A stretch of DNA of 64,000 nucleotides from a virus, in IMG/VR virus record IMGVR_UViG_3300047444_000783, positions 32,001 through 96,000 of that record. One strand, written 5' to 3'. The notes beneath the pieces were generated by a model, which saw only the letters and a program-made list of their open reading frames with translations, did not search any database and was not told the DNA's origin. The position numbers were made by a program, and so were the translations under genes. Below are positions 1-53,148 of the stretch, one piece after another. The number at the start of each line of letters is the position of its first letter. The stretch's first letter is position 1.

Positions 1-3000
1 TCTTGACCTTCGCGTCCGGATCCACCGGCCCCGGCGCTGGCGTCACGCTCGGATCGACTGCCGAATTCGCTTCGTCCTCGCCTTCGGTACTCTCGTCGGC
101 CGACAGATTGCCGGAGTCATCCTCGACGTCGATCGCCTTGATGTGATCCTCGTTCCCATCCTCGAGGAACATCTTGATCAGCCGTTCCTGATCGCCTCCG
201 ACCGGCACACGTGCGATCGCGCGGTAGAGATCCATGAAGATCAGTTGCGTATTGTCGCCCTGGTCGGACTGCTTCACCTGCTGGATGATCTCGTGGAGTT
301 TGGATCCTTCACGGCCGAGCAGCTTGCGGTAACGAATTGGGTTGTAGACCGCCAGATCGGCTGCGAGTTTGCGCGCGACCGTCAACAGGTTGATCGGGAT
401 CCAGCCGTTCGCCGCCGCTTCCTTGAAGTTCCGCGTGATCCAGTCGTCAATGTCAGCGATACGTGCGGCTTCGAAACTGGTCTCAGGCGACGGATTGAGA
501 ACGTGCTCGACGTACTGCGCCGTAGGCCGCTGCAGGGCGAACGCGCTCGTCGGCCGCATGTCGATATAGCGGCGGAAGATTGGCCGCAGGTCGTTCATGT
601 TCTTATAGCCAATAAAATTCACGCGGATCTTTGGCACGCCAGTCGTGCCGGCTTCTTCCGTCTGGCCGACGATCCCGAAGTTATTGACGAACTGCCCTGC
701 GTCGTTGATGCCGCGGTCCCTCCACTCATCGGGCGCAACATACTGCAGCATGTTGTAGATCTCGATCGGATTATTTGGCGTCGGCGTGGCCGTCAATCCC
801 CAGACGTTCTGGCCCTTACGCCCGGACTTGCGTTCGTGAATATAGCGGGTCTTGTACAGCATGTCGGCCGCGCGCTGCGAGTACGAGGCCGCGTGCAGCC
901 ATTCCGACATGTCCATGTACTGGACTGGTGCGTTTTTGTAGTTATGTAACTCGTCCCCAATGATGGAATCGATGCCCGTATCCTCGAAGAAGATTGCGTT
1001 CGTCTTCTTCATGTCCTGGATCGCCGCAAGTTTGCCGCGCATCTTGCGGATCTGCTCCTGGATCACGGTCTCCATCTTCCGGTTCGCCTGGGCACCCGTC
1101 TTCTCCTTCATCTGGCGTAGACGGTCCTCGTACTGCCGGATGTCTTCCTCGAAGTAGTCTTCAGCCGCGCGCAGCGGGATTTCCTTCATCCCCTCGTACG
1201 TCGCAATGATGTAGTCGGGGCTGGACATCGCCACCTGATGGAGCATCCGGTTGCGATTCTTCGAGTTCATTTCGCTCAGGTTGAGGATCTGGGCGGTCGG
1301 GAACAACTCTCCTATCTCATACGCCCAGTTGCCAGCGACCTTGGCTGGCACGACAAGCAGCGGTTTATTGATCAGCCCGCGCTGACGAGCAATCGCGATC
1401 ATCGTGATCGCCTGGCTGGTCTTTCCGGCGCCTACGCCGTGTGCATTAATTCCCGAGCGTGTGCGTAATAATTGCTCAGTCGCCTCCCACTGGTGTTTAT
1501 GAATAGCCAGCGGCTTGCCCTTGAAATTAGCAGCCAACCCTTCGATGGCCTGCTCCTTGCCTTCGAATGATGGATGGCGGAACGATCGGAACATCCGGTT
1601 GTACGTCGGCACCAGATGATCCACGCGGTCGAGGTTCGCCTTGAACCAGTCCTTAAAGACGTCGCCGAGTTGGTCCTGGATCGCCTGCTCGTGGAGGTCG
1701 AACACGGTCTTTGTCTTCTGCTTGCCGTTATAGTCGTACTCGCCGGTGCCGACGACCGTCGTCGCGCGCTTGTGGTTCAGGTACTGCTCGACCTGCTTGG
1801 CGTCGAACTCGTGATCACCTATTTCTCCGGTCTTTGCGTTCGTCACGACGCTCCGCTTGAACGTACCTTTGCCGCCGACCTTCCACATGTGCCGGTTGTT
1901 CTCTGGCACGTACTCGAGTTCGGCGTTCAGGCCGGCCGACTTCAGCCAATTCAGGACCGTCCCCTGGTCCATGAACGAACTGAACGGGTCTGCCGGTAAC
2001 TCATTGACCGTCGCCTGTGGAGGGAGCGCCGCCTCGAGTTCCTTCATCTGGCTGTCAAGTGCTGGTAAGATACCCTGATCGAATTTCGATGGGTCCGCCT
2101 GGACCTGCTGGATCATCGCCTCCGTCTGATCGATCTTCGGCCAGATCGGACCATACAGATACTCCTCGTTGATATCGATCGTCGGCTTGCCATCGGCGGA
2201 GAGCGCGCTGATGCTAAACCCAGGCCGACCGACCAGGAGTTCGTCGATCTGGCCGGTCCCGCGGTATCGCTGCTCGATCTCCCCACGGTTTAGCTCGCCA
2301 GTCTTTTCGTAAACAAACTTAGCGACGTCCTCGATATCCTTCGGGTCGTACTTCCGGTCCGGCGGAATCGGCTTCCAGATCGTGTTAGTCGTGAAGACCG
2401 CCGACGGCTTACCGTTCCGATCGGTCAGTCCAGCCAGCGACCAGATCCGCGGATCCGCAAAGCTGAGCGGATTGTTCTCGGTCCCGCCCCCGACCAGCAG
2501 ATATAGGTTGTTGTCGTACCCCGGCGGCGGGGCCATCTTCCCTTTGTTCTTGCCCGACTGGATAGCGAACTGAGTCCGGTAGTTCTGGATCGCCTGGAGC
2601 AACTGTGGCCGGATCTTGTCGGCCGCCTTCGTGTCGTCTTTACGGAGCGAGTCGTAGAGTTTGTCCGTCAGCTCCATCATGCGGACAGACTGAATCACAC
2701 GCTGGTGAGCGTTCGGTGCCAGCCCCTTCGGGAACGCCGGGTACATGTTCCCATCGCCTGACGCGTAATTGATCTGGTCTTTCTTCGAATCGTAGATCAG
2801 TGTCCCGTGGCGCGTGCCTTCCGGCGCCTTGCCTACCGGCTGTTCGGTTTCCGCAAAACCGGCGACCGACGCCTTAGTCTCCCGCGGTACCCACTTGATA
2901 TCGTCGCCGAGACTCCCGCTCATGAACTCTTCGATCGGCTTCGTCGGCCGGACGCCAATGCGGGTCACCTGGCGCACACCGTAGCCGGCTTCCGGCTTAC

Positions 3001-6000
3001 CCCACATCTGCTCCGGGTTCTTCAGGTAGTAATCGTTCAAGCGGGCAGGCGGCTGTCCGGACTTGGAAAACTGATCTGTCTCGCGCGCATTAATCCATTC
3101 GCCGGTCTTTGGCTCCTCGGTGATCTTGAATTCGAATTCAACGCCAGCGGCCTTAGTAACAGCCTGAATCGCCTTGATCGCCTCAATCTCTTCGGGCGTA
3201 CGCTTCCGCAGAAAGACCGCGTCGACGGACCCGCCGTACTGGGTGTTCTTCTGAAACTCGCCGGCTGGCGTTCGGTAGGCGCCAAGGAACTCCGCTTTCT
3301 CGCTGATCAGCTTGCGGATCTCCGGACTCAGCTTATCCATCGTGCCGGTCGACGTCAGGAAGGACACGACACCGTTTGGCTTTGCCAGATCCAGCGACTT
3401 CATGAAGAAGAAGTCGTGTAGCGTACTGATGTTCTTATAGGCTTCGGCGTCCTTGGAATATTGAAGTTGACCGCGCGAAGCACTGAACGGCACGTTCGAG
3501 AAGATGACGTCGAACAACTGCTTCGTGATGAATTCTTCGAACGGCTTGTTCTGAACGTTCGCCTGTGGGTACAGAAGCGCCGCGATCTTCGCGGCCGTCG
3601 GGTCGATCTCGACCATCGTGATCTTTGTGCCGGCCGGAGCGAAGCCCGCGTAGTTGCCGATGCCGGCAGCCGGTTCGAGCATGCTCGCGCCGTCGAGTGG
3701 ATAGCCCATGGCCTGTAGCTTGTTCCAGTGCCACTGCACCATCTTGTACGACGTGTAGTGCTCAAACAGCACGCCCTCTTCGGCCGACTGCAGTCCACCG
3801 TGGCCGGTGTACTGGCGCAGGATATCCTGCTCTTCGGGCGTCAGTGGGTCGCCCGGCTTCTTCGTCGCCGCGAGATCGGTCGCGCGCGCGTTGATATCCC
3901 GCCGTTGCTGCGGTGTCAGCACAACCGGTTCTTTGCCGATTAGGGTAAAACGTTCTCGGGCTGATCGTTCAACGCGTTCTGATTTAGCTGGCTGCGTAGC
4001 TGGTCGCTCGGCAGGCTGCCCGCCAGGTATTCCTTCGTTAGATCCGAGATCAGATTCGCCCGGCCGTACTCCTCCACCACCGCCGGCGGCAGGCTGTTGT
4101 CCACGAAGTCCGCCGCCATCTCCTCCGCCTGCTGAACCCGGTCCATCTCGTTCAACGGGATGTTCGTCAGGTCCGTGTCCCCCGATAGATCCGGTAGATC
4201 CTGTGGCATTGTCTTCCTCCCCTATAGCTTCAGGATGATCCTTAAACCACTGAGAAATCAAGTCAAATTGACTGCGAAGGTACGGACGGATGGCTTCACC
4301 GATGTCATCGATCATCCGCTCGGCCCAGGCACCGAACTCGCGCGCGCCGGCTTCGAAGTAATAGCCGCCGAGTTTGAACATGTCGGCCAGCATCTCCGGG
4401 TCGAATCCGACGTTCAGTTGCTTGAACTTATCGCGCAGCCGCTTGCGAGCCGCGTCCGCATCGTCCTCGGTAAAGAACTTGTTGCCCTGTCCGAAACCTT
4501 TCTTCGGTTCAGCCTCTGGTTCTGGCGGAGGCGGGATGTGTGGGCCACCGACTGGCGGAGGCGGAAGAGTCGGAGCAGGTCGCGTCTGAGTGGCGCCGCC
4601 CTTGCCGCTTTCAACGAAATCCTTCGCGGCCTTCCGATCCTTAAAAGGACCGTCTGTAATCATTCCATTTTCGGTACCGACAACCCACTTACCCTTATTC
4701 TGCCCAATCGGCGACTTGTAGACGACTCTCTTACCTGCGAAAATCTCGCCAGTTACGGACTTCTCGACACCCTTCTCGTCCTTGTACGGCAGTTCGATCT
4801 CATCCCATCCGCGCTCGGCAGGAGGCCCCTCGACAGGTTTCGGTGCCGCGGGCTTGGTTGTCGCAGGCGCTTCGACTGCTGCTCTTGTTACCCGGCTGGC
4901 TGGGATCCATTTGCTCAACTGCCCATTATCAAGGGCGATCTTGACGTCATTGCCGATGACCTGATAGACAAGGCCTGTACCCTCGTCTGCCGTGACGCGA
5001 TCTCCCCCCTTGAATGGGTTCGCCGTCTCGGCTTTCTCCGGCTTCGTCTCGGGCGGCGCCTCAACCGGCGCAGGAACTTCAGGTTTCGTCTCAGCCGCGG
5101 CGGGTTTCGCCTCGCTGTCGGTGTAGCCGTACAGTCGCAGCGTCTTGATGTATGCTGGCGATTTATCGATCGTGGATCCGTCGGCAAGCACGACCTGCTC
5201 GCCCCGGATGCTGACGACGTCCTGGCCATTCAGTTTGAATACTTTCTTGGGCTTCTGTAACTCTGGAAGTTCTGTCTTTTGTGACTCCGCCGGAGTCGTC
5301 GGGTCGGCGGCCTGCGGTGGCTTCGCCTCTTCCGGTGTCGCCTTCGTTGGCTTCGCGCCAGACTTCCCGTTCCACGCGGTCTCCCCATGGCGCACGAAGT
5401 AGATGCCGCCGGGGATCCGCTTGAAGTCCTTCAGGCCGTCGACGTCCTGAATCTTCCAGGTCCCGTCCTGATCACGCGACAGCCGGTGGACCGAACCTGG
5501 TTCCGTGTCGTCGCCGAATCCGGTGATCGTCTTATCGTCGGTCTTGAGGTCCTGGCCAACCCCAGCCTTGATCCATCCTTCGATCGTCTTGATCGATCGG
5601 CGATTGACGACGATCACGCGGCGACTGTCGGGGTTGTGGTCCAACTCCGCCATCTCGCTATAGACTTCCGGTAGGAGTCGGGCCTTGTACTGGTTGAAAC
5701 TTTCGCCGGGAGTCGACGAATGCTCGGACTGCCCTTCGAATTTCTCGTCTGGGCGGTTGATGATCTGATCGTTGATCTGATCGATGACGTCCGAACTCTT
5801 CTGTCCCTCGAGCGGACCGTACGCGATATCGCGGAGGTTCGGTGTCGTACGGACTGGCGTACCGGTCTCGCCAGCAAGCGCCTTGGCCGTCTGCTGGGTG
5901 CGCGTCAGGTCGGCCGCCGCGATTGAGTCGACGCCGCCCTTTTCCGCAAACTTCTTACCCAACTCCTGGACGTCCAACAATCCGTGGAGCGTCAGCGGGA

Positions 6001-8224
6001 GATTGACGGATCCGCGGATCCGGTCGTCGCGCTCATCCTGGGGCTTATCTGGCGTCGATACGATCTCGTCACCATGCGCGATGTGGCCTGGCGGAATCTC
6101 GTCCAGCCCGAGATGGTTACGCGCCATCTGATCGGTGATGTTCGGATGTGCTCGCCGGTCTGGAAAGTCGATCGGATGATCGCCCGTACGGCGGTCCGAG
6201 ACGGTCGTGTCTGCCGGAGTTTCTACCGGCGCCTCCGGAGTCGACTCCGGCATCGGCATGCCTGGGCCGCCGGCTGCTGCACCCACCTGCTGATCTGGCC
6301 CGGCGAATGCCTGCGGCCCTTTCGAGGCTGCCTTGACGCGCGCGACCTTGTCCTTAATCGACTGACGCTCGACCTGTTCGACCCCGCCCTGCTCGCCGAT
6401 CGCCTGATCAACGAGTTTGTCGGCCATGGCCTTCGCGCTCTCAGGGTCGAACGTATCCGGGCGCCGACCGTACAGGACTTCCGAAACCTCGGCCTTCAGG
6501 TCATTGATTGCCTGGATCTTTCGCGCTGTCCCGATCCCGCCGATCGTTTCAGCCACGGCATGGAAAATCGAGGCCGCCCCCATCGTGGTCGCGATACGCT
6601 CGAGGCGCGACTGATGGTATCCAACCTCCTGGTCCTTCTCGCCCGTATCTTCCTTCGGTTCGATCAGGCCGACGGTGAAGGCCGTGCCGAGCGTATGTTC
6701 AAGGCGCGTCAGAATATTCGCGGCAATCCCGGTCTCGGCCGTTCCGTACAGTGGGGCAAGTAATCGCGAGATCTTCGCCCATGGCGCGCCCATCGCGACC
6801 AGCCCGGTAATCGTATTCGTCGCCGCCTGCCATTTATCGGCGGGGGCGGCCAATCCAAGTTGCTGTAGGCGCTCTTCGGCGCCGGGCAGAAGTTTGAAGT
6901 TCTTATCGACGATCGGAATATGGAGGGTACCGGTCGCGGCATCGGCCATGCCGAGTGTTGCGGCAGACAGCCCGGCCTCGGCTCCGCGGACCGTCCGGCG
7001 ATACATGTCCTTCGCGACTTCCGTCCACGGGCTGGGTTCGGTAATCTGTCCTGGCGTCGCGAGATCGCGGGTCGCTAGGCGCTCGTACGACTCAACCTGC
7101 TGGCGAAGTTCTTCCGGGTCCTGCTGGAGTGGCGGACGGATTGGCCCGGCCATCGTTTCCGGTGGCATCCCGCCGCGCTGCGCCTGACTCTCGTGCAGGT
7201 TCTGCGCGAACGCGTCAGCGTTATCCGGGTTATCGAATTTACCAAGATGCTCGCCCGTCTGGTGGTAGTAGTCGATCGCCGGCTGCATCCACTTGCGCCA
7301 TGCCTGCTGCTTCTGCACGTCCGACATGCCGGGCGTGATCTTCGGCTGCATCCCGTCGGTCAGTCGCTTCCCGTTGACGACAGTCGGGATCAGGACTTCC
7401 TGGCCATTCTCTTCGAACGAGGCTGAACTTGTCGTCGAGACCGAACCGTCCGGATTCTTAAGGACCGGCCGGTTATACAACTCCTTGACTGTCCCGGGCG
7501 TGACCAGGCCTTTCGGCGCTAGCGGCTGACCCTGAGCGATCTTCTGCAGGTCGCGCGGCGTCAACTCCGGATAGCCGGAGTCGTGGTAGATCTGCAGGTT
7601 CTTCGTGCTCTGTGTGATCTGCGATCCGTCGTCCAGGACCAGCGCGTTGCCGTACGTACCGGCGATCGCGCGAGCGCCCGTCGATGGGAGCGGCGGCAAT
7701 GCCAACTGTGGCTTAGCCAAGACTGGAGGCGGTGTCGTCAGCGGCGTATTCGGAGGAACGACCGGCTGATTGATGCCCGTTACCGCCGGCGGCTTCGGAG
7801 CGGGCGGCACATTCTGGCTGGCCTGATAAGCCTTCTCGGATGCGACCGCCCCCTTGGCGGCCGACGCGATGGCGGCTGGTGCTCCGTACAGGTTGACCGT
7901 CGGGTGCAGGAGCGCACCCTTCACGATATCGAAGGTGCTTGGTTCGACGATCGGCGCGATCGGAGGCTTCGGCTGTGGCGGCTCGTACGTGTAGTACGTC
8001 TTCCAGAGCGAGGTCTTGGTGTCGGAGTCCGTTGGGAGCGCACGGATGTACGTCTCAAGTTGCGTTCGGTCCAGCGCCTTCTGGGCGAATACGCGCTGGA
8101 CGTCCTGCACCTTGTCGGGTGGCAATCCGGTAGTAAGCGAATCCAGACTCGCCTGGCGCTCCGTCTTTTCGACCGGCCCTAATGGCTGCGGTATTTGCGG
8201 TGGAGACTCAAGTGGTTCTGCCAT
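1..8224 (-). CDS. Giant polyvalent virion/ejection protein, DarB-like (N6-adenine DNA methyltransferase + SF2/SNF2-like helicase + extra domains); 3' end outside the window, >2740 aa
   Basis: ATG at 8224 with GGGGA upstream (MAEPLESPPQIPQ...). Hand translation shows LRQYTGHGG, MLEPAAGIG, VEIDP and FSNVPF (3485-3496) MTase motifs, Walker A HGVGAGKT (~1418-1441) and DELH (944-955). The track has no ORF in this frame, consistent with no stop before the window edge; the long + ORFs here are its in-register antisense shadows. Confidence 0.9.
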   Translation of the reverse strand, partial: MAEPLESPPQIPQPLGPVEKTERQASLDSLTTGLPPDKVQDVQRVFAQKALDRTQLETYIRALPTDSDTKTSLWKTYYTYEPPQPKPPIAPIVEPSTFDIVKGALLHPTVNLYGAPAAIASAAKGAVASEKAYQASQNVPPAPKPPAVTGINQPVVPPNTPLTTPPPVLAKPQLALPPLPSTGARAIAGTYGNALVLDDGSQITQSTKNLQIYHDSGYPELTPRDLQKIAQGQPLAPKGLVTPGTVKELYNRPVLKNPDGSVSTTSSASFEENGQEVLIPTVVNGKRLTDGMQPKITPGMSDVQKQQAWRKWMQPAIDYYHQTGEHLGKFDNPDNADAFAQNLHESQAQRGGMPPETMAGPIRPPLQQDPEELRQQVESYERLATRDLATPGQITEPSPWTEVAKDMYRRTVRGAEAGLSAATLGMADAATGTLHIPIVDKNFKLLPGAEERLQQLGLAAPADKWQAATNTITGLVAMGAPWAKISRLLAPLYGTAETGIAANILTRLEHTLGTAFTVGLIEPKEDTGEKDQEVGYHQSRLERIATTMGAASIFHAVAETIGGIGTARKIQAINDLKAEVSEVLYGRRPDTFDPESAKAMADKLVDQAIGEQGGVEQVERQSIKDKVARVKAASKGPQAFAGPDQQVGAAAGGPGMPMPESTPEAPVETPADTTVSDRRTGDHPIDFPDRRAHPNITDQMARNHLGLDEIPPGHIAHGDEIVSTPDKPQDERDDRIRGSVNLPLTLHGLLDVQELGKKFAEKGGVDSIAAADLTRTQQTAKALAGETGTPVRTTPNLRDIAYGPLEGQKSSDVIDQINDQIINRPDEKFEGQSEHSSTPGESFNQYKARLLPEVYSEMAELDHNPDSRRVIVVNRRSIKTIEGWIKAGVGQDLKTDDKTITGFGDDTEPGSVHRLSRDQDGTWKIQDVDGLKDFKRIPGGIYFVRHGETAWNGKSGAKPTKATPEEAKPPQAADPTTPAESQKTELPELQKPKKVFKLNGQDVVSIRGEQVVLADGSTIDKSPAYIKTLRLYGYTDSEAKPAAAETKPEVPAPVEAPPETKPEKAETANPFKGGDRVTADEGTGLVYQVIGNDVKIALDNGQLSKWIPASRVTRAAVEAPATTKPAAPKPVEGPPAERGWDEIELPYKDEKGVEKSVTGEIFAGKRVVYKSPIGQNKGKWVVGTENGMITDGPFKDRKAAKDFVESGKGGATQTRPAPTLPPPPVGGPHIPPPPEPEAEPKKGFGQGNKFFTEDDADAARKRLRDKFKQLNVGFDPEMLADMFKLGGYYFEAGAREFGAWAERMIDDIGEAIRPYLRSQFDLISQWFKDHPEAIGEEDNATGSTGSIGGHGPDEHPVERDGPGSAGGGDGGGLRGQQPAAGGGGGVRPGESDLGSNEGIPGGQPAERPATQPAKSERVERSARERFTLIGKEPVVLTPQQRRDINARATDLAATKKPGDPLTPEEQDILRQYTGHGGLQSAEEGVLFEHYTSYKMVQWHWNKLQAMGYPLDGASMLEPAAGIGNYAGFAPAGTKITMVEIDPTAAKIAALLYPQANVQNKPFEEFITKQLFDVIFSNVPFSASRGQLQYSKDAEAYKNISTLHDFFFMKSLDLAKPNGVVSFLTSTGTMDKLSPEIRKLISEKAEFLGAYRTPAGEFQKNTQYGGSVDAVFLRKRTPEEIEAIKAIQAVTKAAGVEFEFKITEEPKTGEWINARETDQFSKSGQPPARLNDYYLKNPEQMWGKPEAGYGVRQVTRIGVRPTKPIEEFMSGSLGDDIKWVPRETKASVAGFAETEQPVGKAPEGTRHGTLIYDSKKDQINYASGDGNMYPAFPKGLAPNAHQRVIQSVRMMELTDKLYDSLRKDDTKAADKIRPQLLQAIQNYRTQFAIQSGKNKGKMAPPPGYDNNLYLLVGGGTENNPLSFADPRIWSLAGLTDRNGKPSAVFTTNTIWKPIPPDRKYDPKDIEDVAKFVYEKTGELNRGEIEQRYRGTGQIDELLVGRPGFSISALSADGKPTIDINEEYLYGPIWPKIDQTEAMIQQVQADPSKFDQGILPALDSQMKELEAALPPQATVNELPADPFSSFMDQGTVLNWLKSAGLNAELEYVPENNRHMWKVGGKGTFKRSVVTNAKTGEIGDHEFDAKQVEQYLNHKRATTVVGTGEYDYNGKQKTKTVFDLHEQAIQDQLGDVFKDWFKANLDRVDHLVPTYNRMFRSFRHPSFEGKEQAIEGLAANFKGKPLAIHKHQWEATEQLLRTRSGINAHGVGAGKTSQAITMIAIARQRGLINKPLLVVPAKVAGNWAYEIGELFPTAQILNLSEMNSKNRNRMLHQVAMSSPDYIIATYEGMKEIPLRAAEDYFEEDIRQYEDRLRQMKEKTGAQANRKMETVIQEQIRKMRGKLAAIQDMKKTNAIFFEDTGIDSIIGDELHNYKNAPVQYMDMSEWLHAASYSQRAADMLYKTRYIHERKSGRKGQNVWGLTATPTPNNPIEIYNMLQYVAPDEWRDRGINDAGQFVNNFGIVGQTEEAGTTGVPKIRVNFIGYKNMNDLRPIFRRYIDMRPTSAFALQRPTAQYVEHVLNPSPETSFEAARIADIDDWITRNFKEAAANGWIPINLLTVARKLAADLAVYNPIRYRKLLGREGSKLHEIIQQVKQSDQGDNTQLIFMDLYRAIARVPVGGDQERLIKMFLEDGNEDHIKAIDVEDDSGNLSADESTEGEDEANSAVDPSVTPAPGPVDPDAKVK
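3940..4209 (-). CDS. Small acidic protein (89 aa) nested out-of-frame inside the giant gene
   Basis: Strong SD GGGGAGGA 5 nt before ATG. Codons in this frame end mostly in G/C, while the host frame here has many A/T-ending Gly/Pro linker codons. Confidence 0.6.
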   Translation of the reverse strand: MPQDLPDLSGDTDLTNIPLNEMDRVQQAEEMAADFVDNSLPPAVVEEYGRANLISDLTKEYLAGSLPSDQLRSQLNQNALNDQPENVLP

Positions 8225-14186: not shown

Positions 14187-17100
14187 CTATCGCTGCCTCG
14201 TTGCTGGCAAGTACTCCTGATCTGCCAATGGCGCGCGCTGGTAACCGCGCTCGCCCGCCATCGGATACCACTCGACGTCCGACTGATTCAAGAACACCTT
14301 GAACCCGCTCGTGCTCGTGATGACGAAACGGAAGGTCTTGCCCTTCAGCCCTGGCGGAAGAATCAACTCGTACTTGATCCAGCCGCTCGCCGACTGAATC
14401 AAGATGGGCGGGCTGGTGTACCGCAAGGATTCATCGACCGATATCTGAACGATGATCGTGCTCGGCGTCTGCGCGGCAATCCACAGCCGACGGATGTATT
14501 TCCAGCGCGTGTACCCGAAATCCAGATCGATCGTGTCGTACCGCGTCATCTGCAGCGGATCCGCCAGGAATTCGAACTGATGCGAGTAATAGCGGAACGG
14601 GCTGGCGCTCGAGAAGATCAGCCGCGTCAGTTTGCCGATTGTGTCGGCAAGCAGCGAGAACGGGACGATCTGTCGGCCGATCGTGGTTATCTGGAGCGTC
14701 TGGGTCGTCTGGTTATCGACCTGGACCTCAACGCTTGTCACATCCTGAGTGTCGATCTCGATCTGCAATTGCCGGAGTCGCTTGTCTCCTGCGTACCCGA
14801 GGTTGTCCCAGTCGGTCGGCAGCTTGGTGACCGGCGACCGGAGCGGGATGTAAAAGAAAGTGATTTTGTAGAACTTTACGGCCTGGCTGCCGTTCGTGCC
14901 CTGCACGCCAAGGCTGACGTTGCGGCACTGTGTGTCGTCCGACAGCGGGAAATAGACCGGGCCGCGCGCGCTGTTCGTCAGGCCGACGCTCTGGGCAGGT
15001 GCCTGGCCGTTATCGAAGCCGGCAAAGAATGGGATGGTCTGCCCCTGCAGGTCGCAGTCGATTACGATCTCGGTAATCTGCTTGGTCACGCTCTGCCCGC
15101 CGAAATCCAGATACGGGGTCGTGAAGCGGATGTTGATCGGAACCCCCTGATCGGTGTTCCCGTTGTTACGCTGATATACCAGACCGTCAGAACTCCCGCT
15201 GTAGAGTTGGCCGATGTCGTCCAAGCGCACATATGACGTGGCCGGCCGGTCCGTCGGTTCCCACCGGCTCAGGTCGAAGTCGAACGTGATCTCCTGGCGG
15301 ACGGTATTCTCGTCCGTGTAGGCGTACCAGATCTTCGAACCGTGGTACTCCATAGCCTCCGTGCCTTTATAGAACACGGCGATCGGCGCCATCGATCCGT
15401 CCGGACTGCCAAAGCCGACACCGTCGAATAGCGGCTGGATCGGCAGCGTCATTTTTTCCGAGAACCCGCTTCCGGGTAGCGCGTAGATTCCTCCGGCTGC
15501 CCGGTAATAGATACGGCCGCGACCGCGGCAGATCGCGTTGCCGAAGAGTCCGACCTCGCTGCCGGTCGGAATCAACTGGAACGAGTCCGGCGCCGATCCG
15601 ATCAGGCGGTCGACTGTCGCCTGGCTGAAGACAAATAACTGATCGTCAAGCCCGAACGGCCGGACAATCGGATCCCCGGAACGGGAGCGGGCCACGTAAT
15701 TATTAGCCAGAAAGATCTCGGGCGTAAATCGCTCGGAGTACCAAATGCGGTCCTTGTGGCGGCTGTCGTTCGACCATAGCCGGCCGTTAAAGACCTCCAT
15801 CGTCACCGGGTCAAACGCGTTCGCGCCGACCCGCGCTTCGGCCACGCGGACGACCGCCGAAAGAGTCGCCGAGACGCTCAGCCGGACGTAATAGGCGTCG
15901 ATGCCGTTAACGCTCGAGATCGCCCAGTCGCTCGGTATATCAAACTCGACCGTCCCGCTCAGCCCGAGCGTCGCCCCAATGTTATCGGTCCCATCGATCT
16001 GGTCCTGTACCGCATACCAGGACGAACCATTCCAGTATTGAACTGTTAATACACTTTGGTTCGTGTTCGCGCCGGCCATGATGACAAGGATCTGACGGAA
16101 TAGCTGGTCCGCTCCAATCACCAGCCAACCCCCGCCGCCGAGGTTCGGCAGACTCGAGAGGTCGGCGTATGTTGTCGTGTTATCGTCGCTGACGGCTGCC
16201 GTGACGTCCGTGTACGTGCCGCCAGAGTTGGCGGTCTTCTGGGCGCTCGTGCACGTCTGGCTTGCCAACTGCTCGAGGTTCGCCAGTTCGATCTGGGTTA
16301 GATCTGGAACGTTCCCCTGATTCTGATCGGCTGTGCTGTCCGTAATCGTCGTCGTGCCCGTCCAGGCCGCCACCACCTTCTCAGCCGCGAACGAGAATAC
16401 GCTTGTCAGACCGCCTTTCCGGTATAACTCGATGTGCGTTGCCTGCAGATCTCGCGGATTCCGCACGGTCACCGTCGCATTCGTCGCGTCGACCTCGACC
16501 TGCGAAGTCATGACCGGGCTGAAGGGGCTAGTCATGCCCGTCAGATTGTTCCGGTACCGGTAGATCCATTCGTAGTTATTCGCATTCAGCCCGTTACCGG
16601 ACTGCATGATCAGGTCGTCCATCCCCAGATTTACGGCCCCGCTGTCATTCGTCTGGATCTGAATCCGGATGCCTGCGACATTCGACCAGTTGGTTGTAGC
16701 GGTCCCCACGCGAACGAACTCCGATTTCCGGATGAAGATCTGCAGCCACTGCGACGTTCCGGTCGGCAAGTTGGCCGGCTGGAGTGTCGCAGCCAGCGCC
16801 TTGTTGGCCGCCGCTATCTGAGATGGATCAAGGGAATTATTGATCGCCAGTAATTGACTCTGCGACAGCTTCCCGTTCAGTTGTCCCGGGAATTGGAGTT
16901 GCAGCGCCGCCAGGCTGACCGTGCTGGAGAATGCCTGTGGCGCCGTCTGAATTCCTTGGGCCGCCGCGTTGGAGACATCGGCGACGATCGACTTCCAGTA
17001 ATAGTTATGCGCGAAATCATTGACCAGCGGGTCGACATCGAACATTAACCGGACTTCCGTTATGTTGGCTGCCACGTCAACCCGGAGCGCGATCGAGATG

Positions 17101-17771
17101 AAATCGTTATCGTCACTGTCGCCGGCGACCGTGAACTTCCCGAGATCGAACGGCGCGATCATCGTCATGTAGCCGGTTGTCGATTTGGCGACCGCGAGGC
17201 TGCCGGCATACGTTCCCTGGAACGGGTCGGTCGATGATGATGTTACCGTCGCAGCGAACGTCGGCCAGGCCGCCTGGATTGACGTGTTGTCCGGATATTC
17301 GAACAGATCGATCGTCTTGGAAGTGATGGCCGTCTCTACCGCGCTCGCCATCGCCATCGGCCCGGCGATCCCAAAGCCGGTGACATTCACCCCGTCATCT
17401 TTAACGCGCCGCAGCGAATCCCATACGATCTCGAACGGAGTGACCGACAGATCCGGGCCACCGTCACGCATCGTCAGCGGGTTACCCGAGAATCCGTGCT
17501 CGATCTCAACCCAGTTGCGGAAGAGTTTCGTGCCGGCCCCCTGGTAGGTATGAGGAGTTCCCTGGACGGTGATCCGGCCCAACGAATGGACGGGGCCGAT
17601 GTTCGTGCCATTGACCCGCGCGGTCCCCCCGCGACTCATCAGGAAGCCGCTCTTGTCGGCCGTCATGTTGAGCAGGTTCGGCAGGTAGCCGTCCGGCAAC
17701 ACGTCTCCCGGGCGACTGATCAGGAGTCCCTTGTTCTCGAGGTCCAGCGTAAATGATTGCGGTTCTGGCAT
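14187..17771 (-). CDS. Tail nozzle / tail tubular protein B-like (1194 aa)
   Basis: N-terminal NM...GFLMSRGG, central FNGRLW...RIWYS, C-terminal TPYLDFG...K; size and position fit a podoviral nozzle. Confidence 0.7.
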   Translation of the reverse strand: MPEPQSFTLDLENKGLLISRPGDVLPDGYLPNLLNMTADKSGFLMSRGGTARVNGTNIGPVHSLGRITVQGTPHTYQGAGTKLFRNWVEIEHGFSGNPLTMRDGGPDLSVTPFEIVWDSLRRVKDDGVNVTGFGIAGPMAMASAVETAITSKTIDLFEYPDNTSIQAAWPTFAATVTSSSTDPFQGTYAGSLAVAKSTTGYMTMIAPFDLGKFTVAGDSDDNDFISIALRVDVAANITEVRLMFDVDPLVNDFAHNYYWKSIVADVSNAAAQGIQTAPQAFSSTVSLAALQLQFPGQLNGKLSQSQLLAINNSLDPSQIAAANKALAATLQPANLPTGTSQWLQIFIRKSEFVRVGTATTNWSNVAGIRIQIQTNDSGAVNLGMDDLIMQSGNGLNANNYEWIYRYRNNLTGMTSPFSPVMTSQVEVDATNATVTVRNPRDLQATHIELYRKGGLTSVFSFAAEKVVAAWTGTTTITDSTADQNQGNVPDLTQIELANLEQLASQTCTSAQKTANSGGTYTDVTAAVSDDNTTTYADLSSLPNLGGGGWLVIGADQLFRQILVIMAGANTNQSVLTVQYWNGSSWYAVQDQIDGTDNIGATLGLSGTVEFDIPSDWAISSVNGIDAYYVRLSVSATLSAVVRVAEARVGANAFDPVTMEVFNGRLWSNDSRHKDRIWYSERFTPEIFLANNYVARSRSGDPIVRPFGLDDQLFVFSQATVDRLIGSAPDSFQLIPTGSEVGLFGNAICRGRGRIYYRAAGGIYALPGSGFSEKMTLPIQPLFDGVGFGSPDGSMAPIAVFYKGTEAMEYHGSKIWYAYTDENTVRQEITFDFDLSRWEPTDRPATSYVRLDDIGQLYSGSSDGLVYQRNNGNTDQGVPINIRFTTPYLDFGGQSVTKQITEIVIDCDLQGQTIPFFAGFDNGQAPAQSVGLTNSARGPVYFPLSDDTQCRNVSLGVQGTNGSQAVKFYKITFFYIPLRSPVTKLPTDWDNLGYAGDKRLRQLQIEIDTQDVTSVEVQVDNQTTQTLQITTIGRQIVPFSLLADTIGKLTRLIFSSASPFRYYSHQFEFLADPLQMTRYDTIDLDFGYTRWKYIRRLWIAAQTPSTIIVQISVDESLRYTSPPILIQSASGWIKYELILPPGLKGKTFRFVITSTSGFKVFLNQSDVEWYPMAGERGYQRAPLADQEYLPATRQR

Positions 17772-26079: not shown

Positions 26080-26414
26080 GTGTGTCGCTCACACGTCCGG
26101 CCAGCCACGCACGCGCACGTGCGGAATGTCTCGAGCGTCATCAGCCCGTTGACGAACTTGGCCGCCATCAGCCTCAGCGCCTCGGCCGGCACTTCGTCCT
26201 CATTGAAGACGAGGTTGACCTGGAAGTACGTTCCGTCAGACCGAAGCGCCGCAAGTTTGATGTTCGTCGCGAAGGTCGGCGGATAGTGCGTCCCATCCTC
26301 CATCGTGTGGCCGTACTCGTCGACGGCCGGACCGTACATTTTCAACATGTGCCAGCCGGGCGACTCGACGACCTCCCGGACTTTCGGATGCAGTTCAGGC
26401 TTCTCGGATGACAT
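26076..26414 (-). CDS. Hypothetical protein (112 aa)
   Basis: Coupled ORF with protein-like composition; C-terminal CxC...C..H. Confidence 0.65.
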   Translation of the reverse strand: MSSEKPELHPKVREVVESPGWHMLKMYGPAVDEYGHTMEDGTHYPPTFATNIKLAALRSDGTYFQVNLVFNEDEVPAEALRLMAAKFVNGLMTLETFRTCACVAGRTCERHT

Positions 26415-27444
26415 TGCAGATCCTTTCTACTTCAGCGTCGGTTAACGCGCTGGAGAGCGGGAGGCATAGGCCGCGCTCGCTGATGGAACGCGCGGCCCGT
26501 CCAGCGAATCCTCTTGGCATTGGGAAGAACGGTCGGCACTCTATATTTTCGCGGTCACACGCATCGATCGCCGCATCCCTATTCGCAGGTATACCCGCAA
26601 ATAGCCAAGGTGCACACTCCTCGGTTGGTTCGATGCGCGGATACGTCCAGCGCCCGACTCCCGCATCTCGGTAGCGCTTCAAGATCTCACGGCGCCGCCT
26701 GAGCATCTTCGGCATTCGCTCCAACTGAGCGCACAGCACGGCAGCCTGGAGGTCCGTCATGCGCGCGTTCAGCCCATCCAGTACCGGCACGTAACTCTTA
26801 TCGGCGATCCCGTGGTTGACGATCAACCGCATGCGTGTGTACATCTCCTCGCTGTTGCAGAGGATTGCCCCTCCTTCGCCGGCGGTCACGATTTTATTCG
26901 CGTAGAATGAAACGACGGAAACGCTGCAATAGAAACTGCCGGGGTATCCGCTTCCGGCAGGTCGGCTTTCATAAGAACCGCCGAACGATTCCGCGGCGTC
27001 CTCAATCATCTCGCATCGTACGGACGATCGGAGGTCTAAGTCTGCGGCAACAACTTTCCCGTAGCAAGGCGCGACTACCGCATAGTCAAACGTGCAGCCT
27101 TTCGGCGTATAAGCCTGCCAAGTCGCCGGGTATGCGTCCTGGTGCCAAACATCGCCGCCGGTCAGCCGGATAGCGTTATGGACGGCCGCGAAGGTCATTG
27201 CGGGTGCCGCGACCAGGCGGTGCGGTTTGATGTTCGTATCCAGCAGGGCTACCATCAGCGCCATCGTCCCGCTCGAGCAGCAGATCGCGTACTTCCGCCC
27301 GGTGATTGCCTTCAGGCGCTCCTCCGCCTCGGCGACGAACTTCCCCTGCGTGATCCAGCCGGAGCGCATGACCTCGTTGACGTTCAGGCGCTCGGCGCGA
27401 CCGATGTCCGGGCGGGCGATCGGGATGCGCGACTTAGCCGCCAT
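26395..27444 (-). CDS. DegT/DnrJ/EryC1/StrS sugar aminotransferase (perosamine-synthase-like)
   Basis: SGWITQG, SSGTMAL, IEDAAES, SFYANKIVTAGEGG (PLP lysine), NARMTDLQAA, LCLP. Confidence 0.93.
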   Translation of the reverse strand: MAAKSRIPIARPDIGRAERLNVNEVMRSGWITQGKFVAEAEERLKAITGRKYAICCSSGTMALMVALLDTNIKPHRLVAAPAMTFAAVHNAIRLTGGDVWHQDAYPATWQAYTPKGCTFDYAVVAPCYGKVVAADLDLRSSVRCEMIEDAAESFGGSYESRPAGSGYPGSFYCSVSVVSFYANKIVTAGEGGAILCNSEEMYTRMRLIVNHGIADKSYVPVLDGLNARMTDLQAAVLCAQLERMPKMLRRRREILKRYRDAGVGRWTYPRIEPTEECAPWLFAGIPANRDAAIDACDRENIECRPFFPMPRGFAGRAARSISERGLCLPLSSALTDAEVERICNVIREA

Positions 27445-27634
27445 ACGTCATCTCCGTGATATCTGGGTCACCTATCGGGATGATCTGGTTCTCGTCCGGG
27501 CAGATAAAGCCGCTGCTCGGCGGGTGGACGATAAACGCCCGTACGCCCCCACCTTCCTTCGGTTCCAGATTTATGCCGACATAGGACAGGCATTTCGTAC
27601 ATTGAAATTGCGGGATAACGTAGACGCTGATCAT
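27434..27634 (-). CDS. Hypothetical Cys-containing protein (66 aa)
   Basis: ATG overlapping the GT stop (ATGA); CTKC...HP....C. Confidence 0.55.
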   Translation of the reverse strand: MISVYVIPQFQCTKCLSYVGINLEPKEGGGVRAFIVHPPSSGFICPDENQIIPIGDPDITEMTYGG

Positions 27635-28665
27635 ACGCCAATCACCTTCTTCCACCGGTCTCTCAGGACGGACCAGGAATGATCCCGCTCGACGATGGCG
27701 CGGTTGGCCTCCGAGATCGTGCTCATATCGTTCTCGGCACACCAGCGGATCTTTTCCGCCAGATCGTCGATGTCGACCTTGTGCGCCAGACAGTGCGGAT
27801 TGACCGTTCCCGCATGCTGGTGTTCGGCGGCCTTCACGCATAGTTGATACCCGGGCGTCCAGAACTCGTTCATCGGCTCGGCATCCGTTGTGATGACCGG
27901 CAGACCGCTAGCCATCCCCTCGAGGCCGACAAGCGAGTGACCGTCGTAATGCGACGGATAGATCAGGACGTCTCCCTCGTCGTAGAGTTCGGCGCGCGTA
28001 TCGCGGGACCCGTAATCGATCTTGACGTTCGACGGCAGGTTCCCATCGAACTCCGGACAGATCCGGCTAAAGACTTCCTGGCAGCGAACAAGCAGCGTCG
28101 CGCCTGGGACGTCCGCCTTGATGAATCCGCGGATGGTCTCACGCGTCCCCTTGCGGCCGTTCATTCCGCCGGATCCTGCATTGTGAATGAAGATCTTTGC
28201 CGGTCCCGATCGCTGGATAAACGGGAACTCGTCCAGGTCGACCGGGTAGGGCAGGAAGATCTTGTTGTCTCGCGGTACCTCCTGGAACGCCTTATACGAT
28301 GGGCAGACATACAGGTCGACGTTCTGATAGGCCGGCAGGTTCGGATTGAACGACTCCCACATGACGATCAGAATCGTCCGCATTCCCAACTCTTTCGCCG
28401 TCTTGAACGTCCGATCGCCGAAACCGGTCTCGATCGAGACCAGCGTGTCGATCTTGTCCGTCGACTGCCAGGCCTCGAGGTCCTGGGGCGCGATCTCCCA
28501 CTGCTGCAGGTAGAACTCCTCGCCGTTTGCCCATTCGAGTGAGTACGGCCAGTCCGGACCGTCCGGGATCACGAGTTGACGGTTGATCCCCAGTTGCTGA
28601 CGGAGATCGTGGGCCATCGTGCCCAGCCCGCGCTTGGAAAGATATGAGACGATTCCGACTGTCAT
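27631..28665 (-). CDS. GT-B (GT4-like) glycosyltransferase (344 aa)
   Basis: RKG, DVLIYPSHYDGHSLVGLEGMASGLPVITTD motif. Confidence 0.9.
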   Translation of the reverse strand: MTVGIVSYLSKRGLGTMAHDLRQQLGINRQLVIPDGPDWPYSLEWANGEEFYLQQWEIAPQDLEAWQSTDKIDTLVSIETGFGDRTFKTAKELGMRTILIVMWESFNPNLPAYQNVDLYVCPSYKAFQEVPRDNKIFLPYPVDLDEFPFIQRSGPAKIFIHNAGSGGMNGRKGTRETIRGFIKADVPGATLLVRCQEVFSRICPEFDGNLPSNVKIDYGSRDTRAELYDEGDVLIYPSHYDGHSLVGLEGMASGLPVITTDAEPMNEFWTPGYQLCVKAAEHQHAGTVNPHCLAHKVDIDDLAEKIRWCAENDMSTISEANRAIVERDHSWSVLRDRWKKVIGV

Positions 28666-40101: not shown

Positions 40102-40241
40102 TCCGTCGGCTTGGCTTTGAGTGCCGCCCGGGCTGCCTTTAATTCGCCGAGATGACCTGTCTTAGCCAGGATGTCCGATCGAAGCGCATTGATCAGGTCG
40201 TTCAATTTTGCGAGTTCAGCCTGCTTTTCGTCTGCTGTCAT
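40098..40241 (-). CDS. Small coiled-coil protein (47 aa)
   Basis: SD AAGGAG before ATG 40241 (MTADEKQAEL...). Confidence 0.55.
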   Translation of the reverse strand: MTADEKQAELAKLNDLINALRSDILAKTGHLGELKAARAALKAKPTE

Positions 40242-41595
40242 GCTTGTTCTCCTTCTTTGACTTTGGTGCGACAACGACATAAAGTTCGGCGCCGCGGGCG
40301 ATAATCTGTCCAATCTTGAAAAACTTCTCGAGTTTCTTCCGCCACCAGGCCGCGCCCTTCTGGATCAGGTGCGTATTCCGGCCGTCCGGCAGTGTCTTGG
40401 CCGCCGGTCCGGTATTGATGGTGAAGAATCCCAACTGCCGCACGCAGCGACACAGATCGTCGAGTACGTAGAATAGTTTGTCAGGTTCGACGTGCTCAAG
40501 GACGTCCGTACAAATAACGAGGTCTGCCGATCTGGGCGACTCCTGCTTTCCCGGGATCCCTGGATCGTATTCATAGATGGGAAAGGCTAGCGCCTTCTGC
40601 AGTTGCGACTTCCCGCATCCGTAGTCCAGGACCGAGACCGGCCGGTCACTCTTCTTGGCCAACAGTCCGACCAGTTTCTGTACGGTCTCGGCATGCTTCC
40701 CACCGCCTACCCCGTACGCCAGGTTGTCCCGATGGAGTTGCGCGTTCAATTCTGCGTATTCCGCCGAAATCAATTCTGGCTTGGCGAACCCGATAACCGC
40801 CGGTGTGGCCGGTGCTCCGGACTTCTGCTGGTAATCCTTGGCCATCGCCTGGACGAGGCCTTCACCATAGAACGTCGCCTTAACATCTGGCATCTGATCC
40901 AACTCGTGCCAGGTCTCCTGCGCGCAGTGCATCACCGAAGAATTTGTGAAATATTCCTTCCCTTTGTACTCCGTGATGGCCCAGTTCCTAGGTTGATTAG
41001 GATGAGCGGCGGCATGATTGCCAACGTCTTTGCGGAAACAGCCGTCCATGCCAAAGATATGAAGTTCAGTGAATCCCATAAAGCGGGCGATCGTAAGCGC
41101 CCTCAGCCCAACACTCGAACCGCCTGTGAGCGCCCACTCGCCAGCCGGCAGCACCCGATGCACGTCCTCGTGTGGCGAGAATACGTGCCACAGTTTGACA
41201 TTGGCGCCGTGCTCCATAAGGTGTTCGATGTATTTGGGATGGCACGTCGAGGACGGCAGGTATTCGACCTCGGCATGTGGAAGCCCAAGCAATTCAACTT
41301 TATGATCGCGCGGATCTACTTCGACATGCCAACTTGGGACGATCCCGCGCTCGAGTAAGAACTTGTGAGCGCCCGAACAGGAGATGATGAACGGGAAGCC
41401 CCGGACCTGTTCCCAGGTCTCGTTGAGAGATGGCCCGTAACAGACGATAGCTACAGGGTCCTGGCGCTTGTCGTAATTCGGCTGGATACGTCCAGGCACT
41501 CGCGCGGAATTAACGCGCACCTGTTCATCGCGTAGCCAGAGAGGTACCGCGTATTGGACGTCCTGCTTTTCGTTGATATCGAGTCGCTTGCTCAT
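40216..41595 (-). CDS. Maf/DUF115 (MptE-like) glycosyltransferase - SAM methyltransferase fusion (459 aa)
   Basis: N-term VAIVCYGPSL...GIVPSWHVEVDP...GGSSVG..AL..A..MGF..LHIFGMD; C-term SVLDYGCGK, DLVICTDVLEHV. Confidence 0.82.
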   Translation of the reverse strand: MSKRLDINEKQDVQYAVPLWLRDEQVRVNSARVPGRIQPNYDKRQDPVAIVCYGPSLNETWEQVRGFPFIISCSGAHKFLLERGIVPSWHVEVDPRDHKVELLGLPHAEVEYLPSSTCHPKYIEHLMEHGANVKLWHVFSPHEDVHRVLPAGEWALTGGSSVGLRALTIARFMGFTELHIFGMDGCFRKDVGNHAAAHPNQPRNWAITEYKGKEYFTNSSVMHCAQETWHELDQMPDVKATFYGEGLVQAMAKDYQQKSGAPATPAVIGFAKPELISAEYAELNAQLHRDNLAYGVGGGKHAETVQKLVGLLAKKSDRPVSVLDYGCGKSQLQKALAFPIYEYDPGIPGKQESPRSADLVICTDVLEHVEPDKLFYVLDDLCRCVRQLGFFTINTGPAAKTLPDGRNTHLIQKGAAWWRKKLEKFFKIGQIIARGAELYVVVAPKSKKENKHDSRRKAG

Positions 41596-45051: not shown

Positions 45052-45552
45052 CTACGCGTGCACCTTTATTAACCCGTTTGTCTGGTCGAAGGAAATCGCG
45101 AAAGACTGGCCGTTTCCTATACTTACGCTAGCACCGCAGTCAATCCAGGAGATGAGCGGTCCGGCCGTCGGAGTCGAGTTGTAGACCACGAGATATCGGA
45201 ACGGTCCGACCGTCCCTCCCGAGGCGGTGAGCGAGATCGGCGCGAGGACCAATCGATACAGCCCGTTGGACTGTTTGGACGAAACGACAGTCAGCAGCCT
45301 CGAGGAACAATTGACGTACGAAATCTCTGAGATGTCAGACAGGACCGCATTCGTGTTGACCGGCGACGTGGCAGTTAGGGCAAACTTCAGAGCGTCGGCC
45401 GCGAGGTCGTGCACCTTGTTCGCCAGATCCGCCACAAACTGGTTGAACGCGTTGTACTTCCCAACCGGAGGACCGGGAGTCGTACCGCTCGATGGTATGT
45501 ATCCCCCGGGGAAATACCCCCCGGGGAATCCTGGGAGATGGCTTCTCGACAT
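45052..45552 (-). CDS. Fibre-associated structural protein, paralog of 52729-53148 (166 aa)
   Basis: FNQFVADLANKVHDL...LKFALT...GPFRYLVVYN..T...LI.WID.G; TAATG coupling. Confidence 0.75.
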   Translation of the reverse strand: MSRSHLPGFPGGYFPGGYIPSSGTTPGPPVGKYNAFNQFVADLANKVHDLAADALKFALTATSPVNTNAVLSDISEISYVNCSSRLLTVVSSKQSNGLYRLVLAPISLTASGGTVGPFRYLVVYNSTPTAGPLISWIDCGASVSIGNGQSFAISFDQTNGLIKVHA

Positions 45553-52726: not shown

Positions 52727-52728
52727 AC

Positions 52729-53148
52729 CTACCCCAATTGCAGTTGAATCAATCCGGTCGGGCCGTTGAACGTCAGCGGCCACGACTCAGACTCGTTAAG
52801 AAAGACGGATGCCCCGTAATCAAACCAGGCGATCAGCGGATGATTGCTCGGCGTCGCGTTATAAATCACGATGTACCGGTATGGGCCGACGGACCCGTGT
52901 GACGCCTGGAGCGCAAGATCCTTGCACACCAGTTTGTACAGGCCGGCGGTCTGAGTCGATGAGATGACCGTGATATCGCGCGCGCTGCAGTGCCTGTAGC
53001 GGACTTCGTGGATGCTCGAGAGTACCCGATTTAACGGGCTGGGCTGGGTATTGGTGAGCGCGACCTTAAGGTCGTCGGACCCGAGGTTGTGAACCCCATT
53101 GGCGAGATCCGCCACGAACTGCTGGAACAGATTGTAGACGGCCGTCAT
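52729..53148 (-). CDS. Fibre-associated structural protein (139 aa)
   Basis: FQQFVADLANGVHNL...LKVALTN...GPYRYIVIYNAT...LIAWFDYG. Confidence 0.8.
   Translation of the reverse strand: MTAVYNLFQQFVADLANGVHNLGSDDLKVALTNTQPSPLNRVLSSIHEVRYRHCSARDITVISSTQTAGLYKLVCKDLALQASHGSVGPYRYIVIYNATPSNHPLIAWFDYGASVFLNESESWPLTFNGPTGLIQLQLG

Follow-up and report, generated by a model that had tools for sequence, protein, structure and literature searches.

The locus considered here raises the question of whether a histidine phosphatase can be built with its catalytic strand at the opposite end of the chain. The histidine phosphatase fold, shared by dPGM, PhoE, fructose-2,6-bisphosphatase, SixA, PGAM5, and Sts, is among the best-studied enzyme scaffolds, and the RHG motif of the superfamily normally lies on the first, N-terminal strand. 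The window analyzed in this work (64,000 nucleotides, corresponding to bases 32001-96000 of the 109,586-base IMG/VR virus record IMGVR_UViG_3300047444_000783, whose completeness is 100% according to CheckV) derives from an uncultivated phage of ~110 kb and includes part of the gene for a giant, DarB-like protein (P0003, 4179 residues in its full length). A first-pass annotation, made from the sequence alone, had placed in this protein a circularly permuted histidine phosphatase domain with the RHG strand in the last position; each of the strings it quoted was reproduced by translating positions 5300-6100, and the RHG codons were re-derived at 5384-5392. The domain represents a real and widespread rewiring of a textbook fold, one that is apparently undescribed: full-text searches retrieved no paper in which a histidine phosphatase or phosphoglycerate mutase is permuted, nor any on a histidine phosphatase in phage counter-defence.

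The comparison with Pfam assigned the domain to the branch-1 family His_Phos_1 (PF00300), with 80.6 bits against a gathering cut-off of 21.7 (E 1.6e-22). Most of the match lies in residues 732-873, which cover positions 13-146 of the 194 in the profile, and a second, short stretch falls on the downstream RHG strand. The strand GIYFVRHGETAWN is the last element of the domain and is preceded by the core, which runs from just past the RHG to the last strand. The same order emerged from the comparison with PhoE (YhfR; 1H2E, 1EBB), a broad-specificity phosphatase of Geobacillus stearothermophilus: phmmer aligned query residues 233-245 (IYFVRHGETAWN) with chain residues 4-16 and query residues 27-149 with chain residues 19-136, and a family profile of 67 members aligned its positions 216-230 with residues 4-18 of 1H2E and its positions 11-175 with residues 18-172 (E 4.8e-26). 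Since one segment ends and the other starts at chain residue 18, the two pieces join exactly at PhoE residue 18. The RHGxxxxN motif is complete, with R945-H946-G947 and N952 aligned to PhoE 9-16, and it comes after the entire core, i.e., the connectivity is not the canonical one. The NCBIfam equivalogs (GpmB, CobC, PspA, and others) start at model position ~17-19 and are all far below their cut-offs, and in the ESM Atlas the matches were limited to generic His_Phos_1 clusters. The circular permutation is thus borne out by Pfam and by the order of the segments in both PhoE comparisons.

An AlphaFold2 (AF2) model of the domain, built from a 67-sequence alignment, has a mean predicted local distance difference test score (pLDDT) of 90.0 and a predicted template modeling score (pTM) of 0.83. 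Along the model, helix 38-53 is followed by strand 59-62, helix 66-79, strand 83-85, helices 102-115 and 135-155, strand 160-165 (ending in an Asn), further helices, strands 204-209 and 215-219, and finally by the relocated strand (model residues 232-237, GIYFVR), whose pLDDT is ~98. This is an alpha/beta fold of the dPGM/PhoE type. The best Foldseek matches were dPGM, CobC (the alpha-ribazole phosphatase), and PhoE, with a probability of 1.0 to the first two, and VIA-align superposed the model on iPSP1 (4ij6_A; Z 17.7, 2.6 Å, 179 residues) and on PhoE (1h2e; Z 17.5, 2.8 Å, 176 residues), model residues 25..224 corresponding in the latter to chain residues 18..201. Each of the 50 VIA-align rows picks up the solved chain at about residue 15-45, just past that chain's own RHG strand; since the alignments to iPSP1 and PhoE begin at chain residue 16-18, the first strand of the solved proteins remains without a partner at the N-terminal end of the model. 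From the pLDDT values, this unmatched first strand, and the identity of the motif, we infer that the last strand occupies the central position in the predicted sheet, which is what the first-pass annotation had suggested examining with AlphaFold.

The same permutation was then looked for in other proteins. When 1.84 billion cluster representatives were searched exhaustively with HMMER, 1361 proteins matched at E <= 1e-3; their number fell to 294 at <= 1e-10 and to 46 at <= 1e-30. In about 138 of the 152 best representatives, the core is followed by an RH(G/A/S)xT strand, colinearly with the query, whereas the RHG strand is N-terminal in eight and the remainder are truncated; many representatives of ~220-250 residues may be fragments. 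The window domain carries the signature of this permuted family, in which the core starts with xRGSxxxPL and the domain ends with G(I/V)Y(L/F)(I/V)RHGxTxWN past the last canonical strand, and a Pro-Gly or Gly-Gly is conserved across the family just before the relocated strand. The proteins hosting the permuted domain range from ~200 to 5366 residues. Scanning IMG/VR with the single protein gave no match, and scanning it with an alignment of the 14-member subclade of the window copy gave seven loci, which add family members on viral contigs of 47-103 kb. Among the INPHARED phages, no match was obtained either with the domain by tblastn or with 20 kb by megablast.

Stand-alone genes for permuted phosphatases occur at two IMG/VR loci, L004 (4992-5657, plus strand) and L006 (2813-3526, plus strand), and some stand-alone permuted proteins, of about 220 residues, are encoded in phage head modules. 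At L004, a GGAGG site lies 8 bases ahead of the ATG at 4992, directly after the stop of the portal gene, and the protein, which starts 5 residues ahead of the RGS motif, has RHGATDWNG at its very end; the gene is located between the portal gene and that for a virion structural protein (phrog_1645, E 3e-105). Its AF2 model is confident (pLDDT 93.2, pTM 0.86, final strand 97-98). The permuted unit is therefore self-sufficient and has no need of an upstream strand such as the IAHG tetrapeptide of the window protein. The latter had been taken in the first-pass annotation for a vestige of the catalytic strand. This reading had to be abandoned: IAHG is missing in every homologue aligned across that stretch, it falls within the first 20 residues of the AF2 model (pLDDT ~52), and the stand-alone members do without any N-terminal strand. 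Being unconserved and placed in a segment predicted to be disordered, IAHG is a chance tetrapeptide rather than a vestige.

Some further observations concern these relatives. At L004, translation of the phosphatase gene is coupled to the stop of the portal gene; at L006, the phosphatase gene is located upstream of that for the large terminase. In the metagenomic protein P0074 (residues 643-1090), an insert of ~220 residues separates the core (643-831) from the relocated strand (VTRHAET at 1076); judging by this protein, an entire extra domain can apparently be accommodated in the new connector. At L009 (30-395, plus strand), the match extends only to query position 208, and the ~25 residues that follow show no RH strand; its loss or a further insert could explain this.

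How often did the permutation arise? Phages also harbor histidine phosphatases of canonical order (P0144, P0133, P0154, P0155-P0185), in which, unlike in the permuted copies, the RHG strand is N-terminal; they share with the family the motifs IRG(S/W)xDxPL, LxPWxLG, PGGESFNxFKxRF, and VTHYR, and some of them are embedded in proteins of ~3000 residues. Phylogenetic trees were built on the core common to both orders, leaving out the RHG strand and sampling 54 permuted rows. Their backbones were weak, and the position of the RHG changed four times in the FastTree tree and three times in a quick IQ-TREE search. The multiple origins that such changes would imply were not accepted, because a tree constrained to keep the 54 permuted rows as one group surpassed the quick free tree by 73 log-likelihood units (approximately unbiased test, p-AU 0.963). 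In this tree, the best one found, the canonical-order relatives form the other side of a single split from the permuted copies; this makes one origin likely, and a single permutation event is the best-supported history so far. No tandem or double-RHG intermediate, with the motif at both the N- and C-terminal ends, was found among the relatives searched. For a fold that carries its nucleophile on the central first strand, the permuted family provides a natural experiment on the importance of chain connectivity.

The analysis of the active site was based on the correspondence with PhoE, in which R945/H946 match R9/H10, N952 matches N16, R775 matches R59, D799 matches E83, and N874 matches H151. 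The window copy belongs to a clade of 14 members (support 100), with pairwise identities to it of 36-59%. The second catalytic His reads Asn, as the first-pass annotation had noticed in the string VVNRR: Asn874 is present in 14/14 members of the subclade, versus His in 111 of the 123 other permuted members and in all 41 canonical-order relatives. Asp799, a conservative change at the Glu column, occurs in 12/14, versus Pro (78), Ser (28), and also Ala among the 123. Furthermore, Arg875 (13/14, versus Tyr/Ser/Gly in the other permuted members), Tyr802 (13/14, versus Leu), and Thr880 (12/14, versus Leu/Ala) are typical of the subclade, and all five residues are placed at or near the two canonical catalytic columns. 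The nucleophile His is invariant in the 137 permuted relatives; within the subclade, this residue, Arg775, Thr949, and Asn952 are kept in 14/14, Arg945 in 13/14, and R876 is invariant or nearly so. Since the nucleophile and the Arg residues are kept while the Asn, Arg, Asp, and Tyr changes co-vary, we read this pattern as that of a pocket that has been rebuilt and selected, not decayed; by itself, it would fit catalysis and binding alike. The rest of the phage family, including the canonical-order members, has no acid at the Glu site, so that the alignments reveal two different departures from the textbook set: a family without the Glu-site acid, and a subclade with an Asp at that site but without the second His. 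The Asn subclade, in turn, offers a natural active-site variant for mechanistic work.

The location of the domain within a giant virion-type protein was also upheld. The DarB-like antirestriction family phrog_10089 of PHROG matches residues 1469-2964 of P0003 (E 9.8e-174), and Pfam matches to an Eco57I-like methyltransferase (MTase), SNF2, and Helicase_C are present; the protein is a polyvalent one, in which several enzymatic modules of unrelated kinds are joined, the DarB MTase-helicase body among them. The co-oriented genes upstream of it code for tail-fibre-like proteins and for a 1194-residue protein (14187-17771, minus strand) with an amidase-like region at residues 522-740 (phrog_5107), probably an ejected cell-wall hydrolase. 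The DarB-like body and the position of the gene after the tail and wall-hydrolase genes suggest, by analogy, that the giant protein is packaged into the virion and delivered into the host together with the DNA. If so, many uncultivated phages would appear to bring the enzymatic activity of this family into cells on virion proteins. In addition, a precomputed annotation lists PF28555.1 for P0003.

Residues 732-955 thus make up a complete branch-1 fold with altered connectivity: the chain begins just past the canonical RHGxTxxN motif, traverses the whole core, and passes through a short new connector to the central strand bearing Arg945, His946, and Asn952. This connectivity would form the phosphate pocket from the same residues as in PhoE and dPGM, with the nucleophile arriving from the C-terminal end, and according to the mechanism that we propose, a phosphoryl group would be transferred to His946 and then hydrolyzed. 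In the window copy, Asn874 and Arg875 stand in for the second His and Asp799 for the Glu, a remodeling that probably alters the rate or the substrate rather than abolishing function. We consider it somewhat more probable than the contrary that the domain is a working phosphomonoesterase, carried into the host on the DarB-like virion protein and active early in infection, with a pocket remodeled in this copy.

As for the substrate, we suggest with low confidence a 2'/3'-phosphomonoester of a nucleotide or RNA. In five representatives, belonging to three clades of the tree, a 2H phosphoesterase with weak-to-threshold similarity to Acb1 directly adjoins the permuted domain, in both orders (Table 1). 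Acb1 opens cyclic oligonucleotides via a cyclic-phosphate intermediate to GpAp with a 3'-phosphate (PMC9117128). The latter is a phosphomonoester of the kind that histidine phosphatases remove, so that the adjacency hints at 3'-phosphates of nucleotides or RNA, and the recurrent fusion provides a testable lead to immune-signal or RNA-end chemistry. These fusions are also the sole support for an action on defence nucleotides, which the first-pass annotation had put forward as a possibility. A broader proposal, which we regard as rather doubtful, is that the permuted histidine phosphatases are an undescribed, phage-delivered counter-defence class that removes 2'/3'-terminal phosphates from the products of nucleotide-signal or RNA cleavage, the Asn subclade having a distinct substrate or chemistry. 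If this were true, these enzymes could complete the breakdown of cyclic-oligonucleotide alarm signals that Acb1-like 2H enzymes have opened, or heal RNA ends cut by host anticodon nucleases, and the distinct chemistry of the Asn/Arg/Asp/Tyr subclade could be a long-lived phospho-enzyme.

Some points weigh against a virion-delivered phosphomonoesterase. The second catalytic His is gone and the proton donor is Asp instead of Glu, and turnover may thus be poor. The place of the last strand between two central strands derives from model confidence and motif identity, not from measured contacts, and packaging and injection are argued only by analogy. Moreover, the whole 109,586-base genome of this phage gave no match to PF13563 or PF23474 (2H/Acb1) at E <= 1, and without a 2H partner the substrate hint may not apply here.

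The alternative that survives best, possible although on the unlikely side, is a pseudo-enzyme that binds a phospho-ligand, such as a nucleotide signal, a phosphoprotein, or the end of a DNA or RNA, and acts as a sponge or targets the DarB-like enzyme body. The Asn that replaces the second His throughout the subclade and the extra pocket charge brought by Arg875 would suit such a binder, and phage sponge proteins against immune nucleotides are an established strategy; however, binding does not need the nucleophile His, which is nevertheless invariant in the subclade as in the whole family, and the subclade-specific Asp at the proton-donor site resembles a catalytic compensation. We deem improbable a phosphotransferase, either mutase-like or forming a long-lived phospho-enzyme, in which the hydrolysis of phospho-His946 would be slowed and the phosphate passed on or held. 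Indeed, dPGM, the archetype of the fold, is a transferase acting through phospho-His, and an acid is missing from the canonical Glu site in most of the phage family (Pro in 78/123), but the closest solved relatives by sequence and fold (PhoE, iPSP1, and CobC) are hydrolases and no acceptor-binding feature was identified. Lastly, the idea that there is no true permutation, the RHG strand being what is left of a degraded second domain in tandem, with the first domain either completed by IAHG or missing its first strand, could appeal to the HG dipeptide 17 residues upstream of the domain and to the tandem copies through which a duplication-deletion route passes, but it is already contradicted, and very improbable, given the unconserved and predicted-disordered IAHG, the presence of only a low-complexity linker past the RHG strand, the core-then-RHG order kept in about 138 representatives and in stand-alone proteins ending right after the motif, and the lack of any relative found with both N- and C-terminal RHG.

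Table 1. Features of the permuted domain and its host protein (window positions), and 2H neighbors in other representatives (residues)
Feature	Position	Strand	Basis or remark
Giant polyvalent, DarB-like protein, in-window part (residues 1-2741)	2..8224	-	continuous open frame, 3'-open at the window edge
Whole circularly permuted histidine phosphatase domain, residues 732-955	5360..6031	-	Pfam, AF2, VIA-align, translation
Fold core, PhoE residues ~18-201 (everything past the canonical RHG strand)	5429..6031	-	VIA-align, family profile
New connector DFKRIPG, from last canonical strand to relocated strand	5408..5428	-	pLDDT ~96
Relocated first strand and catalytic motif GIYFVRHGETAWNG (R945, nucleophile H946, T949, N952)	5366..5407	-	AF2, PhoE alignment
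R775, second phosphate-binding Arg (PhoE R59)	5900..5902	-	invariant in all aligned relatives
D799...Y802 (LRDIAYG), Asp at proton-donor Glu site (PhoE E83) and subclade-specific Tyr	5819..5830	-	register versus PhoE LREIHLG; Asp codon 5828-5830
N874-R875-R876, Asn at second catalytic His site (PhoE H151), then two Arg	5597..5605	-	Asn codon 5603-5605
IAHG tetrapeptide, outside the fold	6071..6082	-	unconserved, pLDDT ~52
P0123, phosphatase, then 2H	2H at 684-775		
P0068, 2H, then phosphatase	2H at 1519-1607		
P0051, 2H, then phosphatase	2H at 838-923		
P0073, 2H, then phosphatase	2H at 36-123		
P0077, 2H, then phosphatase	62-179		2H match below cut-off

Other genes of the window were also inspected. 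Those at 26395-28665 and 40216-41595 (minus strand) have PHROG matches to an aminotransferase, a glycosyltransferase, and a methyltransferase, and may represent a sugar or DNA-modification cluster within the phage. At 45552-52783 (minus strand), two adjoining open reading frames of 874 and 1536 residues have no PHROG match at 1e-5.

Compared with the known systems, the window domain has its fold in common with PhoE, iPSP1 (4IJ5/4IJ6), and CobC, and shares with PhoE, which the family profile matches best in sequence, the RHGxTxxN motif, the second Arg, and the GES motif. It differs in that the segment corresponding to PhoE chain 4-18 sits at the C-terminal end, in that H151 and E83 are replaced by Asn and Asp, and in that a PhoE-type enzyme has ~200 residues, whereas this domain is embedded in a protein of 4179. 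The latter resembles DarB of phage P1 and the polyvalent proteins in its giant, multi-enzyme make-up with an N6-MTase and superfamily 2 (SF2) helicase body, and the domains found beside the phosphatase in 23 long relatives (ddrB-ParB, ART-PolyVal, LPD38, and DUF7178) are of polyvalent-protein types. P1 DarB, of 250 kDa, is a component of the phage head that is believed to make its way into the cell (PMC9024508). Iyer, Burroughs, Anand, de Souza, and Aravind, who surveyed polyvalent proteins in 2017, do not use the word "phosphatase" in their main text (PMC5512222), and the histidine phosphatase module is an addition relative to that text. Finally, the anti-CBASS 2H phosphodiesterase Acb1 (PMC9117128) has a different fold and chemistry from the histidine phosphatases, next to which Acb1-like 2H domains are fused in the five relatives described above.

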